A stretch of DNA of 12,542 nucleotides from a virus (Duplodnaviria; Heunggongvirae; Uroviricota; Caudoviricetes). The number at the start of each line of letters is the position of its first letter. Position 1 is the first letter of the stretch. The DNA lies in IMG/VR virus record IMGVR_UViG_2671181050_000002. The stretch is one strand, 5' to 3'. The position numbers and the translations under genes are program-made. The notes below the pieces were generated by a model. The model was not told the origin of the DNA. It ran no database searches and saw only the letters and a program-made list of their open reading frames with translations. This document shows, piece by piece, positions 102 through 12,542 of this stretch.

Positions 102-2198
102 TTATGCAAGCCTCACAATATAGTTAAATGCGATGTTTTTGACGGTGTTTTCCGCGTTACCCGCAGCGTTAACGGTGATGGTGTGTCCATGTGAGCCAAT
201 CGCAACGGAGTGCGTATGAGCACCAATACCGACAGTATGTGCATGTGCGCCTGCGCTTGCAGCAGTGCCGGACAGCGAGTGGGTATGAGCACCATCTGAT
301 GATGTCTTCCCTGCATTACGAGTCTGGCCACTACCGCTTGTTGTGCTCATAATCCCCGCGCTTGGATTTGAAATCGCGGTATAACCATTAGGGAAAATGC
401 TCGTGTTCGTGCCACCAAATGCACCGGAACTCTTGTGTTGGTGCGCGCCGGCACTATTTGCGGTCCCGCTAATACTATGGGTATGCGCCCCGGTGTTATT
501 CGTGGATTTGGTTCCGTAATCAAACGACGATGTGGTTTTCGTCCCCAAATCCGTACTGGATGCGCTGGCGCTGTGGGTGTGCGATTTAATGCCGTCCTGT
601 TCCTGAGACAATACGGCGCGACCACTGGCAGGTTTGCCCTTAATCGTCCAGCCACGCATATCAGGGATCACGCCTGACGGATAAGCGGCTGCAAGTTTCG
701 GGTATGCAGATTTGTCAAAAGTCTGCCCCTGCATCAGGGCATAACCAGACGGAACGGTATCTGATGGCCACGGGATTGGTGCGCCGACTGGGTAGCTTTC
801 TGGTGGAAGATTTTTCGAGGTATAAACTTCTGCCCAGTCTTCCTCAAAACCATAGCCATCTCTTGAGGAACGGTAGAACAGACCTCCATTTCTGTAATGT
901 GCCTTCACCCCCTTCACCACCTTCGGCGTGTCCCAGCGCGCCAGCACCTGATATTCCCCGCTGTCTGCGGTGACTTCGGCAGTCAGGTGCTGCACCGCTG
1001 GCGGCGTGACATCATTCACCGTGCCGCTCTGGTCGCCGTCAAAGTGCGCCCCGTTATCCACGATGGCTTCTTTTTCCGGTACATGCTGCACGGCAGTGAT
1101 GGCATACGTGCCGTCATCGTTCTCACGGATACTCACACAGCGGAACAGGCGCTGACGCAACGTCGGCAACTTCAGCCCCCACACACTGTATTCTGCAACG
1201 CCGTCAGGAACCCGGTTCACTTTCACCTTAAGTCCGTCGGTGACGGACTGAACCTCCACGCTGACCGGACTCCCCTGCCCGTCAACCAGGCTTATCAGCG
1301 TGGTGCCGGAAGATGGCAGCGTGATTTCACGGTCGAGCGTCAGCGTCCGGGTCTGGCTGTTCACCGCCAGCACGCGACCACCGGTGCTGATACCGGCATA
1401 GTCATCATCGCAGATTTCAATGACATCGCCCGGTACATGGCGAAGCCCTTCAGCACCCACGCTGAAATCCACGGTCTGCGTCTCCAGCAGTTCCGTTTTA
1501 ATCAGCCACAGCCCGGCGCGGTGTGCCTGCCCCCGGCTGGTACAGCCAAAGGCATCCATCTTCGTGACATTACGACCGTAACGGGCAATGGCCTGCGTAT
1601 CTTCAACAAGCTCTGTCGCCGTCTCCCAGCCGTTGTTCGGGTCAATCCAGTTCACCTCAACGGCATTATGGCGGTCCTTCAGGGCGCTGAAGCTGTAGCG
1701 GAACGGCGCGCCATCATCCGGCATCACCACATTACTGCGGTTATAGGTCCACACCTTATCTGATGGTCGGTCCTGCACGAACGTCAGCGTCTGCCCGTTC
1801 CATACCGGCATACAGCGCATCGCCGAGCAGAAATCACTGAGCACATCCCACGCCTTACGCTGTGTGGTCAGCCAGGCATTACAGGTGATGCGCGGCTCCG
1901 TGCCGCCAAAACCATTCGGTACCAACTGGTCGCAGTACTGGCCGATGACATACAGCGTCCATTTATCCACATCTGCTGCACCAAGACGTTTCCCCATGCC
2001 GTAGCGCGGATGGGTCAGCATATCCCACAGACACCAGGCCATGTTGTTGCTGTATGCTGGCTTAAACGTTCCATCCCAGATACCGCTGTATTGCCGCGTC
2101 TGCGGGTTATAGTTCGACGGCACCTGCAGAATGCGCCCGCGCAGATGATAATTACGGCTCACCTGCTGGCTGCCGAACTGCTCCGAGTCCACCTGCAC
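102..2198 (-). pseudogene. Chimeric tail-fibre remnant: central part of host-specificity protein J (ORF aa 1-431) fused in frame to the C-terminal ~265 aa of side tail fibre Stf (GAHTHS His-box repeats, ends [11 protein letters not shown])
   Basis: 698-aa ORF from the six-frame track. Its N-terminal part ([41 protein letters not shown] ... [12 protein letters not shown]) matches the middle of lambda J as recalled; after residue ~431 it switches to Stf-like C-terminal sequence. The first codon is GTG in the middle of J sequence with no ribosome-binding site, and the upstream A fragment is in another frame. Confidence 0.7.
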
Positions 2199-3088
2199 GC
2201 CGACCAGTGCCGTGTTCGGGTATCCCCTTTCGTCTTCATCCAGTCTTTGACAATCTGCACCCAGGTGGTGAACGGGCTGTACGCCGTCCAGATGTGAAAG
2301 GTCACACTGTCCGGCGGCTCAATCTCTTCACCGGATGACGAAAACCAGAGAATGCCATCACGGGTCCAGATCCCGGTCTTTTCGCAGATATAACGGGCAT
2401 CAGTAAAGTCCAGCTCCTGCTGGCGGATGACGCAGGCATTATGCTCGCAGAGATAAAACACGCTGGAGGGGTCATCCGGCGTCCATTTGAGGCCAAACGG
2501 CGTCTCTTTGTCGCCAAATTTAAGATACTGCTCCTCCCCGCAGTGCGGGCAGGCAACATGAAAACGCATAAAATGCGGGGATTCACTGGCTGCACGCTCA
2601 ATCTGGCAGGTGCCTCTCACTTTGGGCGTGGAGCCACGGATGGACTTTGGCCAGACCGAGCCTTCAATACGCTTGTCACCCAGGAACGTCGGAGAGCCTT
2701 CCTGTTCAATATCATCATCAAAAGCAGCAAGTTCATCATAACCCGCCACATCCACCGACTTTTCACGGTAGTTTTTTGCCGCTTTACCGCCCAGGCACCA
2801 GAAGCCACGCCCATTAGTGAAACGCTTCATGGTGAGCGTGTTATCCCGGTGCTTTTTGCCATACCACGGGGCCAGCGCCAGCAGCGACGGAATATCACGA
2901 ATAGTCGGCTCAACGTGGGTTTTCATAAAGTTCTCGGCATCACCATCCGTCGGCAACCAGATAAGGGTGTTGCGCTGCTTATGCTCTATGAAGTAGGCAT
3001 AAACACCCAGCAGCATTTTGGAATAACCAACACGGGCAGACTTCACCACATTCACCTCGCGGATGTAGTCACTGCCCATCGCATTCAT
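2159..3088 (-). pseudogene. A: Terminase large subunit (gpA) internal fragment, lacking the N-terminal ~65 aa and the entire C-terminal half
   Basis: Translation (…)[67 protein letters not shown] ... [15 protein letters not shown] matches lambda gpA as recalled, then 19 out-of-frame codons derived from J sequence before the stop at 2159. An internal ATG at 3088 is the only possible start. Confidence 0.8.
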
Positions 3089-3201
3089 GATGGCCCGCTG
3101 CCACCTCCGGAGACGCAAGGGAGTCCCTGAGACTGCCAGCGTTCAATCGTTCGCGGATCCACGTTGAAAATTTCGGCAAGTTTCTTTTTATTAACCTTCA
3201 T
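3085..3201 (-). pseudogene. Terminase small subunit (Nu1-like) N-terminal stub, 38 codons
   Basis: ATG at 3201 gives [38 protein letters not shown], resembling the Nu1 N-terminal HTH region (lambda MEVNKKQLADIFGASIRTIQNWQEQGMP...). The reading frame runs into gpA-derived sequence at about 3097-3100 and stops at 3085. Confidence 0.6.
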
Positions 3202-4878: not shown

Positions 4879-5148
4879 CTACTTCACTTTTGCTTTTGCT
4901 TTTGCTTCCGCTCGCTTACGCCGGCGCTCTTCTTTCCTCTCGGCTTTTGCCATGTCCATGAATGCCTGCATGATCGAGTTCCGCATCATGTAGCTAACAA
5001 AGTGATGATTGACACAGCCGTTGAGGCGCAGCTGCTCGCCAAACTCATCCACCGAGGCCAATGCTTCCATCATGCCCTTCTCGCCTTTCATGAACTCTGA
5101 GAAGTCGCGCCCCGCTCTGGAGGCGCATTCAATGACACGATCACTCAT
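4879..5148 (-). CDS. Hypothetical protein (89 aa) with a Lys/Arg-rich C-terminal tail
   Basis: ORF MSDRVIECASRAGRDFSEF...KAERKEERRRKRAEAKAKAKVK; its ATG overlaps the stop of the upstream KilA-N ORF (ATGA), suggesting translational coupling. No homolog recognised. Confidence 0.4.
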   Translation of the reverse strand: MSDRVIECASRAGRDFSEFMKGEKGMMEALASVDEFGEQLRLNGCVNHHFVSYMMRNSIMQAFMDMAKAERKEERRRKRAEAKAKAKVK

Positions 5149-5641
5149 CCCGGAAGCCCGGGGATCGTAATCTGCAGCTGGTTAGCCAGGGAGTTAATCT
5201 CAGCGACCAACACTGGCTTCGTATAGCGCCATGCTGCCAGCCCTTGTCCGCAGAAGCTCGCCATGTCTTTCTTCTGGTCAAACTCATGACATTTCATGTT
5301 GAGCTGCGCACTTAAGCTGTTGCGATGCTGAAGTTCTCCGGTGAAGTAGTCATCGAGGACTTTATAGGCCGCGTACTTGAACCCGGGGTTTAACCAAGCC
5401 GCATAATCGTAAGCAACAAACTTCCCGCCATATGTTCCACCGTGTACACCGCGCTCAGTAAAAACCACAGATTCGTGGTTTTTCTCCAGCTCGGCTAAGA
5501 ACTCTTTGGTCTGCTTGTTTCGCAGGTAGTGGTAAGGCGATTCAGATTCACTTTTACCACTGGCTTTCCACATACAGTGAGGCAGATCATGCCATCTTCA
5601 CCGATACGAATTGGTTGATTGAAGAGGGTTAATGATTTCAT
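5145..5641 (-). pseudogene. KilA-N domain protein with an apparent -1 frameshift near 5571-5576; intact downstream ORF is 5145..5573 (142 aa)
   Basis: The 142-aa ORF contains KilA-N/APSES-like motifs (SPYHYLRNKQTKEFLAELEK ... GGTYGGKFVAYDYAAWLNPGF). The expected N-terminal strand MKSLTLFNQPIRIGEDGMICLT is encoded from ATG 5641 in a different frame and stops after 47 codons. Confidence 0.5.
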
Positions 5642-7583: not shown

Positions 7584-8666
7584 ATGAAAAAATTAACAGT
7601 GGCAATTTCTGCTGTAGCTGCATCAGTACTGATGGCGATGTCTGCTCAGGCAGCTGAAATTTATAATAAAGACAGTAACAAGCTGGATCTGTACGGGAAA
7701 GTTAATGCTAAGCACTACTTCTCCTCTAATGATGCAGATGATGGTGATACTACTTATGCCCGTCTTGGCTTCAAAGGTGAAACCCAAATCAACGATCAAC
7801 TGACTGGTTTCGGTCAGTGGGAATATGAATTCAAAGGCAACCGCGCTGAATCTCAAGGTTCCTCCAAAGATAAAACCCGTCTTGCCTTCGCTGGCCTGAA
7901 ATTCGGTGACTACGGCTCCATCGATTACGGCCGTAACTACGGTGTAGCATACGACATCGGTGCATGGACCGACGTTCTGCCAGAATTCGGTGGCGATACC
8001 TGGACCCAAACAGATGTATTCATGACTGGTCGCACCACAGGTGTTGCAACTTATCGTAACAACGACTTCTTTGGTCTGGTTGATGGCCTGAACTTTGCAG
8101 CTCAGTATCAGGGCAAAAATGACCGAAATGAAGTAACTGAAGCTAATGGCGATGGTTTCGGTTTCTCAACTACTTATGAGTATGAAGGATTCGGCGTGGG
8201 TGCAACCTATGCTAAATCTGATCGCACTAATAATCAGGTTATCTACGGTAACAACGGTCTGAATGCTTCTGGTCAAAATGCTGAAGTATGGGCAGCTGGT
8301 CTGAAATATGATGCGAACAACATCTATCTGGCCACCACCTATTCTGAAACCCAGAACATGACTGTTTTTGGTAATAACCATATTGCCAACAAAGCACAAA
8401 ACTTCGAAGCTGTTGCACAATATCAGTTCGACTTCGGCCTGCGTCCATCCGTTGCTTACCTGCATTCTAAAGGAAAAGACTTGGGTGTTTGGGGTGATCA
8501 GGACCTGGTTGAATATGTTGATGTAGGTGCAACCTATTACTTCAACAAAAATATGTCCACTTTTGTTGACTACAAAATCAACCTGATTGATAAGAGCGAT
8601 TTCACGAAAGCATCTGGCGTTGCTACCGATGATATCGTTGCTGTAGGTATGGTTTACCAGTTCTAA
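7584..8666 (+). CDS. nmpC: Outer-membrane porin, NmpC/OmpD-like (OmpC/OmpF/PhoE family), apparently intact
   Basis: 360 aa; signal peptide [23 protein letters not shown] then AEIYNKD...; C-terminal VGMVYQF typical of general porins; closely matches DLP12 NmpC as recalled. Confidence 0.85.
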
Positions 8667-8784: not shown

Positions 8785-8815
8785 ATATTACCCTTTATTT
8801 TTGGGGGCGTTTCAA
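8785..8815 (-). promoter_or_regulatory. Candidate late promoter (pR'-like) just downstream of Q: TTGAAA-19 nt-TAATAT
   Basis: Minus strand -35-like TTGAAA (plus 8810-8815) and -10-like TAATAT (plus 8785-8790), about 40 bp after the quuD stop; the hairpins at 8682-8735 would give a short terminated leader. Sequence-pattern inference only; the 19-nt spacer is suboptimal. Confidence 0.3.
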
Positions 8816-8830
8816 CGCCCCATTTTTAAT
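8804..8830 (+). terminator. Intrinsic terminator, plus strand (likely nmpC terminator)
   Basis: GGGGCG-tttcaa-CGCCCC followed by ATTTTTAAT. Confidence 0.5.
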
Positions 8831-8854: not shown

Positions 8855-9238
8855 TTAATTAGAGTTATTAACAACGATATCCATCTCTAACCGGATATCT
8901 AATGCCATTAACATCCCTTCAATTATGCCCTCAGCCTTTTGTAACCTTTTCCCGATATAACCATCAGAGCAGCAATGCTTACCTGCCAGTGACATGAATG
9001 TCATACCGACTATATAATAATCTACTAATAAATCGTGCAAATCGCTGTTGTTCTTTTTCAGACGGGCCATGCACCCGCAAATGATCATCGCGTCATCGTC
9101 ACAACATTGCGGGCGAGATTTTACTTTTGAAGGAATTAATCCCTTAAAACCGGCGGCAATGGACGACCAGGTCACATCTTCATGATTATTAGCCGCCCAC
9201 GCTCCCCAACGCTCAAGAACCATCTGAATATCACGCAT
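8855..9238 (-). CDS. quuD: Late-gene antiterminator Q (phage 82 type)
   Basis: 127 aa from [60 protein letters not shown]...; GGAG 8 nt upstream of this ATG; matches DLP12 QuuD as recalled. The longer ORF-track start (9253) lacks an RBS. Confidence 0.8.
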
Positions 9239-9323
9239 CAACTTACTCCACAAAAATCAGACCAAAACGCCAATTACAAGCAAAAATCAACAAAACAGTA
9301 TTAGTTGATTGTTATCTCTGACT

Positions 9324-10550: not shown

Positions 10551-11074
10551 GCCGCCCTCCTGACGCCCTGCCCGATCGCCATCAATGCCGCTTTGGATAC
10601 GGTAGTAAACATCCGTCGAGGACTGATGAACGGTCGCCAAATCAGCAGCATGGAGCCTTTGCTGTTTCCCTTCTTCTCCAGCCCTGTCGATGGTTCGATA
10701 AAATTAATCCGTCCATCAGTGATAATGCGAACTTCGTCGACACTCTCCAGAGCCTTGCTGAACCATCCGACTGACATATCCTCTGGCACAAGCATAACTA
10801 CCGTCTGTCGCTGTTGTATGCACTGCTCAGCGGCTTTTTCCACCCACGGCCTGATATTGCTGTACGGTGGGTTATTCCAGATTGCACCGTGGCTTACCCA
10901 CTCAGAATTGAGCGCGTCGTCGGCCTCAGTTAGCCAGTGAGCACACAGAGCATTTTTGTCGCTCGCTGCCGAATCCAGCCAGAATCCAAACTCAATATCC
11001 AGTGCATCAAAAAGCCAAAGCGGCGTTTGCCAGCAGTCCTTGTCGTGTGCTGGCGTATTTGATTTGATAGTCAT
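10547..11074 (-). CDS. Phage-type orphan DNA N6-adenine methyltransferase (Dam family), 175 aa
   Basis: From [31 protein letters not shown]...; catalytic NPPY motif ([14 protein letters not shown]); ATG overlaps the ninB stop (ATGA). No adjacent restriction endonuclease gene. Confidence 0.75.
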
Positions 11075-11511
11075 GCAGCCCGATCTCCCCATCTCGCTTT
11101 CCACTCCAGAGCCAGTCTCGCTTCGTCTGACCACTTAACGCCACGCTCTGTACCGAATGCCTGTATAAGCTCTAATAGCTCCGCAAATTCGCCTACACGC
11201 ATCCTGCTGGTTGACTGGCCTATTACCACAAAGCCATTCCCGGCAAGGTTAGGAACAACATCCTGCTGCTTTAATGCTGCGGTAAACACACACTTCCAGC
11301 TTTCTGCATCCAGCCAGCGACCATGCCATTCAACCTGACGAGAGACGTCACCTAAGCAGGCCCATAGCTTCCTGTTTTGGTCTAAGCTGCGGTTGCGTTC
11401 CTGAATGGTTACTACGATTGGTTTGGTTGGGTCTGGAAGGATTTGCTGTACTGCGTGAATAGCGTTTTGCTGATGTGCTGGAGATCGAATTTCAAAGGTT
11501 AGTTTTTTCAT
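11071..11511 (-). CDS. ninB: Recombination protein NinB (Orf family)
   Basis: 146 aa from MKKLTFEIRSPAHQQNAIHAVQQILPDPTKPIVVTIQERNRSLDQNRKLWACLGDVSRQVEWHGRWLDAESWKCVF..., matching lambda NinB as recalled; GGGAGAGGGAAG upstream of the ATG at 11511. Confidence 0.85.
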   Translation of the reverse strand: MKKLTFEIRSPAHQQNAIHAVQQILPDPTKPIVVTIQERNRSLDQNRKLWACLGDVSRQVEWHGRWLDAESWKCVFTAALKQQDVVPNLAGNGFVVIGQSTSRMRVGEFAELLELIQAFGTERGVKWSDEARLALEWKARWGDRAA

Positions 11512-11526
11512 GACTTCCCTCTCCCC

Positions 11527-11559
11527 CAAATAAAAAGGCCTGCGATTACCAGCAGGCCT
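11527..11559 (-). terminator. tR2-like intrinsic terminator upstream of ninB
   Basis: Hairpin AGGCCTGC-N8-GCAGGCCT (11536-11559) followed on the minus strand by TTTTATTTGG; it occupies the position of lambda tR2 (between ren and ninB). Confidence 0.45.
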
Positions 11560-11579
11560 GTTATTAGCTCAGTAATGTA

Positions 11580-11648
11580 GCAGAACACATCCGGTACATG
11601 GTTGAAACCATTGCTCACCACCAGGTTGATATTGATTCAGAGGTATAA
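11580..11648 (+). pseudogene. gam: gam 3' stub (last 22 codons and stop of the Gam inhibitor of RecBCD)
   Basis: In-frame [25 protein letters not shown] ends 5 nt before the bet ATG, matching the Gam C-terminus as recalled; upstream the frame is closed by TAG at 11565-11567 and no gam N-terminus is present. Confidence 0.6.
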
Positions 11649-11653
11649 AACGG

Positions 11654-12439
11654 ATGAGTACAGCACTCGCAACGCTGGCAGGGAAGCTGGCTGAACGTGT
11701 CGGCATGGATTCTGTCGACCCACAGGAACTGATCACCACTCTTCGCCAGACGGCATTTAAAGGCGATGCCAGCGATGCGCAGTTCATCGCATTGTTGATC
11801 GTCGCCAACCAGTACGGCCTTAATCCGTGGACGAAAGAAATTTACGCCTTCCCTGACAAGCAGAACGGCATCGTTCCGGTGGTGGGCGTTGATGGCTGGT
11901 CCCGTATCATCAATGAAAACCAGCAGTTTGATGGCATGGACTTTGAGCAGGACAATGAATCCTGCACATGCCGGATTTACCGCAAGGACCGTAATCATCC
12001 GATCTGCGTTACCGAGTGGATGGATGAATGCCGCCGCGAACCATTCAAAACCCGCGAAGGCAGAGAAATCACGGGGCCGTGGCAGTCGCATCCCAAACGG
12101 ATGTTACGTCATAAAGCCATGATTCAGTGTGCCCGTCTGGCCTTCGGATTTGCTGGTATCTATGACAAGGATGAAGCCGAGCGCATTGTCGAAAATACTG
12201 CATACACTGCAGAACGTCAGCCAGAACGCGACATCACTCCGGTTAACGATGAAACCATGCAGGAGATTAACACTCTGCTGATCGCCCTGGATAAAACATG
12301 GGATGACGACTTATTGCCGCTCTGTTCCCAGATATTTCGCCGCGACATTCGCGCATCGTCAGAACTGACACAGGCCGAAGCAGTGAAAGCTCTTGGATTC
12401 CTGAAACAGAAAGCCACTGAGCAGAAGGTGGCAGCATGA
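11654..12439 (+). CDS. bet: Single-strand annealing protein Bet (Red beta)
   Basis: 261 aa [84 protein letters not shown]..., essentially the lambda Bet sequence as recalled. Confidence 0.9.
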
Positions 12440-12542
12440 CACCGGACATTATCCTGCAGCGTACCGGGATCGACGTGAGAGCTGTCGAACAGGGGGATGA
12501 TGCGTGGCACAAATTACGGCTCGGCGTCATCACCGCTTCAGA
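12436..12542 (+). CDS. exo: Lambda exonuclease Exo (Red alpha), 5' end only (continues beyond window end)
   Basis: ATG at 12436 overlaps the bet stop (ATGA); translation [36 protein letters not shown] matches the lambda Exo N-terminus as recalled. Confidence 0.85.

Follow-up and report, generated by a model that had tools for sequence, protein, structure and literature searches.

A base-resolved ninB–bet junction, the probable scar of an immunity and replication region deletion, in a lambda-like prophage remnant at attλ of Escherichia coli

In intact lambdoid relatives ninB and bet are separated by ren, P, O, cII, cro, cI ... cIII, kil and gam. How, then, do these two genes come to lie back to back with a gap of only 142 bp between them? 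The question arises in a stretch of 12,542 nucleotides from a virus of the Caudoviricetes (IMG/VR virus record IMGVR_UViG_2671181050_000002), the whole of which is referred to here as the window. An earlier note, made from the sequence alone, had proposed that the immunity and replication region was deleted between a stub of gam and the tR2-ninB segment, leaving bet and exo without their promoter. Judged from the alignments described below, the 142-bp gap between the divergent genes is very probably the scar of a 5.7–7.7 kb deletion in a lambda-like prophage. The features around it, in window coordinates, are as follows.

11071 to 11511, minus strand: ninB (orf), recombination mediator, 146 aa, intact (PF05772 NinB, E 2e-54)
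11527 to 11561, minus strand: the lambda tR2 intrinsic terminator, with a stem-loop at 11536–11559 and the U-run encoded by 11527–11535
11560 to 11580, minus strand: remnant of the ren-ninB spacer (lambda 40595–40575), without the ren stop codon and without the ninA ATG
11580 to 11581, no strand: deletion junction, lambda 40575 joined to 32884, with one nucleotide (G 11580) common to both parents
11580 to 11648, plus strand: gam stub, the last 22 codons and the stop, with no start codon and no N-terminus
11654 to 12439, plus strand: bet, RecT-family single-strand annealing protein, 261 aa, intact (PF03837, E 2.7e-33)
12436 to 12542, plus strand: 5' end of exo, running off the end of the window, collinear with the full-length exo of the IMG/VR contig L002

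With window 11300–11620 as the megablast query against lambda, positions 11300–11580 match lambda 40855–40575 at 100% identity over 281 bp. The identical stretch comprises ninB (100% DNA identity from lambda 40644 onward, over the stretch tested, window 11300–11580), the tR2 terminator and the spacer to 5 nt beyond the ren stop codon. Searches from the bet side show homology of gam-bet-exo to many lambdoid phages, starting at window 11580. When the window was aligned base by base with the two lambda parent segments, identity on the ninB side extended through G 11580 (lambda 40575, which lies 5 nt beyond the ren stop TGA at 40568–40570) and then collapsed; identity on the gam side started at the same G 11580 (lambda 32884) and took in the gam stop, the ribosome-binding site in front of bet, and bet itself. 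The lambda interval absent from the window is 32885–40574, or 7,690 bp. The prophage of E. coli LWY6, a second and closer parent and the closest intact E. coli prophage, was also used for sizing the deletion: it puts the breakpoint at the same base, with 5,690 bp missing. The exact size and content of the deletion are bracketed by these comparisons. The alignment revealed no recombinase or restriction-site scar at the join. Both flanks are collinear with lambda and with the intact relatives LWY6 and mEp332, which hold the deleted genes between ninB and bet.

The proposed loss of the immunity and replication region between the gam stub and tR2-ninB is borne out by the two-parent alignment, by the collinear flanks and by the absence of these genes elsewhere in the element. 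The base-by-base alignment with lambda gam and the ren-ninB interval contains neither a gam N-terminus nor immunity genes, and the whole interval that would hold kil, cIII, N, the immunity genes, cro, cII, O, P, ren, pL and pR is missing, as had been listed. The same list named rexAB; the interval in which these genes lie in lambda is indeed absent, but they need not ever have existed in the ancestor.

The hairpin in front of ninB, at first described as tR2-like, can be called tR2, because the minus strand of window 11561–11528 is identical, base for base, to the published tR2 oligo aacaggcctgctggtaatcgcaggcctttttatt (TR2-cut, PMC4824070 supplement) and lies at the position given in the same source. 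Li et al. 2015 used this primer-table oligo as the "well-studied lambda terminator tR2"; the same paper places tR2 30 bp downstream of where the small ninA ORF starts and gives the identical sequence, in a different context, a maximal efficiency of about 0.9 (PMC4824070). The minus strand of 11561–11528 also equals lambda 40594–40627. In our alignment the whole of 11527–11561 corresponds to lambda 40594–40628 and the stem-loop at 11536–11559 to lambda 40596–40619, so that the hairpin sits exactly at the lambda tR2 location; tR2 is not annotated in the lambda GenBank records NC_001416 and J02459. It has an 8-bp stem with six GC pairs, followed by TTTTTATTT on the minus strand, and its position is 24 nt upstream of the ninB ATG; it is the sole strong terminator-like call in the region, was called on the minus strand only, and is still correctly oriented in front of ninB after the deletion. 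The plus-strand RNA of the hairpin folds too (−18.6 kcal/mol, z −4.3) and is followed by the U-poor GUUAUUAG; read toward bet, tR2 would be at best a weak terminator. The description of the gam stub as abutting the hairpin was right as to the hairpin, but 20 spacer bases (11560–11579) intervene. The deletion also takes the ninA ATG (lambda 40567); this tiny ORF, which overlaps with the stop of ren, extends across tR2 into the start of ninB.

On the other side of the join, the gam codons at 11580–11645 and the TAA at 11646–11648 form a gap-free match to the 3' end of lambda gam (32884–32816). This alignment, an in-frame TAG upstream at 11565–11567 and the lack of a usable start (the sole in-frame ATG gives a 16-aa peptide) confirm that only the last 22 codons of gam remain, and the complete ORF of a functional Gam (RecBCD inhibitor, PF06064; 138 aa or the 98-aa GamS) is not present. 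Another prophage of the same genome could still be a source of Gam. Downstream, bet retains its native GAGG ribosome-binding site at 11640–11643 and encodes a protein with 260 of 261 residues identical to lambda Bet; its plus-strand orientation, divergent from ninB on the minus strand, is as first reported. The window holds the first 35 codons of exo, which is adjacent to bet and overlaps it (ATGA). In L002, the only copy in which exo is complete, the gene encodes 226 aa (PF09588, YqaJ family), of which 222 are identical to lambda Exo.

The element sits at attλ of E. coli, between ybhC, on the int side, and ybhB-bioABFCD. Its bet side is seen in L002, where bet is accompanied by exo, homologues of orf60a/orf63, a gene for a TraR/DksA-type protein and an Ea22-like gene, and further out by a dATP/dGTP pyrophosphohydrolase gene, xis, a lambda-type int and then host ybhC. 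The other side is seen in a second contig, L003, and runs from ninB through dam, (ninE), ninX, rusA, ylcG, a Q gene of the 82/DLP12 type and an oppositely oriented porin gene to S, R, Rz, KilA-N, DUF1398, a truncated terminase A, a J-like chimera and tfa; it ends with an AraC-type gene and IS fragments, followed by ybhB-bioABFCD. The bio flank matches E. coli strains, ML35 among them, at 100% identity, and carrier contigs of up to 120 kb show a normal chromosomal attλ context. Taken together, these contigs describe a remnant of about 25 kb at the classical E. coli attλ. No repressor, cro, N, cII, O or P was found among the called genes from ybhC to ybhB (L002 and L003 together), so the repressor/cro switch and O/P-type replication module of an inducible, replication-competent prophage are lacking. 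What is found is the configuration of a defective prophage, integrated at an attachment site with host flanks and an integrase at one end, and deprived of genes for lytic growth (the immunity/replication core and head and tail genes).

Comparison with known systems places the element among the lambdoid phages while setting it apart from lambda itself. Gene order, orientation and sequence on both flanks of the junction are those of the lambda early region, with the gam stub and the bet ribosome-binding site collinear, whereas the late region, with its 82-like Q, porin and RrrD lysozyme, belongs to the DLP12/mEp332 type. DNA identity to mEp332, ev099 and the LWY6 prophage is 95–98% across ninB-dam-ninE-ninX-rusA-ylcG-Q-porin-S-R-Rz and across gam-bet-exo. 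In contrast to the window, the viable phages mEp332 and ev099 and the LWY6 prophage contain the full ren-to-gam interval, and mEp332 also has all head and tail genes. The exact Bet protein is very common (72,617 index blocks), and its look-up serves as a control: among the matches listed, only Gam-containing contexts occur, and the identical Bet protein has full-length Gam directly upstream in 10/10 other contexts.

The consequences for expression follow from what the deletion took. In lambda, pL is the only promoter for the Red genes, and their transcription depends on antitermination by N. The lambda pL control region lies wholly inside the deletion, and no N_peptide domain was found among the called genes; of the Red operon, the bet/exo adjacency is kept while upstream pL, nutL and N are gone. 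A consensus scan found no plus-strand σ70 site between 9100 and 11653. In a weight-matrix promoter scan, run with approximate matrix values and calibrated on lambda promoters (pR' 14.7, pR 13.3, pL 12.5, pO 11.5, pRM 9.9), the highest plus-strand score was 4.9 in the 250 bp upstream of bet and 8.0 in the 2.6 kb upstream. These scores amount to background, since 18 hits per strand across the window score at least 8. The earlier view that there is no convincing promoter upstream of bet therefore holds in silico, with 4.9 and 8.0 set against 9.9–14.7 for the lambda controls. A promoter created by the join itself can be rejected, as the best score at or near the junction (4.9) is below the 99.9th-percentile background of the window (6.4).

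The strongest σ70-like site in the window, GTGACA-18-TATAAT at 8989–9018 on the plus strand (11/12 matches, score 13.0), lies 2.6 kb upstream of bet, antisense inside the 5' half of the 82/DLP12-type Q gene (8855–9253, minus strand), a position that recalls the lambda anti-Q promoter paQ. This candidate is the only plausible source of plus-strand read-through toward bet, and could in principle send antisense transcripts that way; further upstream, the porin gene ends in a predicted terminator. With the pL control region deleted and no promoter of control quality within 2.6 kb upstream, bet and exo have most likely lost pL-driven expression, so that their transcription is absent or limited to weak read-through. 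By the same reasoning, the loss of pR and N from the nin-Q arm makes it probable that the entire remnant is transcriptionally quiet, autonomous genes such as the porin gene excepted.

The junction allele is rare. A 401-bp query across the join is covered by none of 5,426 complete E. coli genomes, of which 3,696 match one side or the other, and none among 50,697 phage records covers the junction. The junction 30-mer used for searches, AGCTCAGTAATGTAGCAGAACACATCCGGT, has no match in the GTDB representative genomes (one per species) or in the JGI metagenome contigs; an exact search found it in one IMG/VR contig, L002, and it also occurs in contigs L003–L005 (ENA metagenome assemblies and an NCBI MAG), which were retrieved through the unusual 698-aa J-like ORF of the window. 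The exact 698-aa J-stf protein marks the lineage and is carried by 15 contigs, about 14 of which show the same RecT/NinB adjacency. Over 7.6–12.2 kb, L002–L005 differ from the window by 6–10 positions (99.87–99.94% identity), each with private differences.

In all five deletion-bearing copies the bet ORF is open, and six of the seven substitutions in bet/exo between copies are synonymous. With only seven substitutions, mostly clustered in one copy, a selection test on bet/exo has no statistical power, and the intact state of bet (five copies) and exo (one copy) would be expected equally after a recent deletion and under selection to retain them. L002 differs from the window at ten positions, six of which are clustered at L002 7251–7556 (window 12199–12504), from the 3' half of bet into the start of exo; of these six, five are synonymous and one is an A241V change. 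The clustering suggests a gene-conversion patch from another resident lambdoid prophage.

These data bear on an alternative to simple decay, namely that the locus is a domesticated recombination island, in which selection favours the deletion for ridding the element of lethal and regulatory genes and keeps bet-exo, ninB (orf) and rusA, expressed for the host via a cryptic promoter or read-through. The open bet in every copy, the full-length exo in L002, the preponderance of synonymous changes and the retained native ribosome-binding site would all fit such an island, as would the strong σ70-like site on the correct strand at 8989–9018 and a reverse tR2 whose weak U-tract makes it an inefficient block to plus-strand read-through. 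We nevertheless consider it very unlikely. A recent deletion would in any case leave bet/exo intact and the differences mostly synonymous. No site of promoter quality lies closer than 2.6 kb to bet, and an untranslated 2.6-kb antisense transcript is a Rho target. Divergence between copies is below 0.15%, too little to show purifying selection, and the clustered synonymous changes of L002 resemble a conversion patch rather than evolution in place. The allele is rare (0/5,426 complete E. coli genomes), and the related remnant in ML35 does without exo, bet and ninB. The specific form of this reading, in which the deletion left a repressor-free, non-toxic island of bet-exo divergent from ninB (orf), with rusA downstream, that is under selection in the host lineage and has low constitutive expression from a cryptic or antisense-Q promoter, is highly doubtful; if true, it would represent a natural Gam-less Red system alongside active RecBCD.

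That the join is an assembly chimera or a laboratory-engineered deletion is hardly credible. Its absence from the searched complete E. coli genomes, species-representative genomes and JGI metagenome contigs might raise the suspicion, as might the 100% identity of the ninB side to laboratory lambda over 281 bp. However, at least five sequences, produced by different projects and assemblers and each distinguished by SNPs of its own, contain the junction, it bears no recombinase or restriction-site scar, and contigs of up to 120 kb place it in normal chromosomal surroundings. Because several independent samples carry it with private differences, the join is an inherited allele and not an assembly artefact, and these multiple, slightly divergent copies effectively refute a chimera. 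An engineered or laboratory lambda deletion is rejected as well, given that the element is found in gut metagenomes and is not lambda outside the ninB patch (DLP12/82-type Q, porin, Dam methylase, ninX). Next to no probability attaches to a native mosaic boundary, that is, a lambdoid type with Red genes naturally beside the nin region and immunity/replication genes elsewhere: lambdoid genomes are mosaic and the ninB-side breakpoint lies near a gene boundary, 5 nt after the ren stop, but the other breakpoint falls in mid-gam and leaves 22 codons without a start, immunity and replication genes are missing between the host flanks, the element also lacks head and tail genes, and 0/50,697 phage records cover the junction.

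The preferred reading, a deletion within a once complete prophage, would begin with an ancestor of the same layout as lambda, mEp332 or the LWY6 prophage. In it a single event of illegitimate recombination, independent of homology, would have fused codon 116/117 of gam to a site 5 nt beyond the ren stop codon; the joining is regarded as illegitimate because the breakpoints overlap by one nucleotide only. Most of gam, kil, cIII, accessory genes of the ea10/ral/sieB type, N with nutL, and pL would have been lost, together with the repressor, pR, cro, cII, O with ori, P and ren. On the evidence of its sequence, the resulting element is without immunity, replication module, antiterminator N and early promoters, and its Gam is destroyed. 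Both arms would have been transcriptionally orphaned, the Red genes without pL and the nin-Q arm without pR, and the prophage would be unable to be induced, to replicate or to kill its host, so that the allele could persist and pass vertically in the lineage. Two more deletions, here called A'|J' and J|stf, and a frameshift in KilA-N fit continuing decay. In all likelihood the locus reflects ordinary stepwise prophage decay and is a grounded cryptic prophage of a known kind, built of well-known parts.

Such remnants have familiar counterparts. DLP12, Rac and Qin of K-12 are chromosomally fixed lambdoid remnants which have lost immunity, replication and structural genes by internal deletions and kept nin-rusA-Q-porin-lysis segments. 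Closer in location, ML35 carries a related lambdoid remnant with internal deletions at the same attλ site. Unlike the allele described here, which keeps bet, exo and ninB, the ML35 remnant (L009 7178–7680; window 10896) has a larger central deletion that joins orf60a (DUF1317) to a truncated dam and removes exo, bet, the gam stub, tR2 and ninB; its porin gene is interrupted by IS5, whereas the porin here is intact. The ML35 deletion could be independent, or it could be nested over the allele studied here.

The appropriate annotation is a defective prophage in which gam is a pseudogene fragment and bet-exo are remnants lacking a promoter. The locus offers a base-resolved case of the grounding of a lambdoid prophage, in which one microhomology-independent deletion takes all lethal, regulatory and replication functions at once. 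Seen alongside the remnant in ML35, which has the same site but another deletion, it illustrates repeated loss of the central region in prophage decay. This type of deletion is already known, and the significance is small beyond correct annotation. Were bet-exo expressed, the lineage carrying the allele would offer a natural setting in which to test Red activity without Gam, but nothing here points there.

Several other features of the element are of note in their own right. In the A'|J' join, a terminase A' of about 309–319 aa (GpA_ATPase; window 2159–3118) meets the middle of J out of frame near 2211–2222, with about 12 nt of homology overlap, and all head genes and most tail genes are missing. 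In the J|stf join, at 905–907, J is joined with 3–4 nt of microhomology to the C-terminal part of the side tail-fibre gene, with 4,651 bp missing relative to E. coli LWY6; the product is the 698-aa chimeric ORF (window 102–2198, minus strand), with Phage-tail_3, Ig_J, Collar and fibre-repeat domains. The KilA-N gene (5145–5641, minus strand) is short of one base at 5574 in the window (ACATA-CAG, against ACATATCAG in 4/4 relatives). This 1-bp loss is private to the window copy and puts the 165-aa KilA-N/ORF11CD3 gene out of frame after codon 22; the cause is either continued pseudogenisation of this copy or an error in sequencing. An intact OmpC/NmpC-type porin gene of 360 aa (7584–8666, plus strand) lies, oppositely oriented, between Q and the lysis genes and has its own predicted terminator at 8804–8821.
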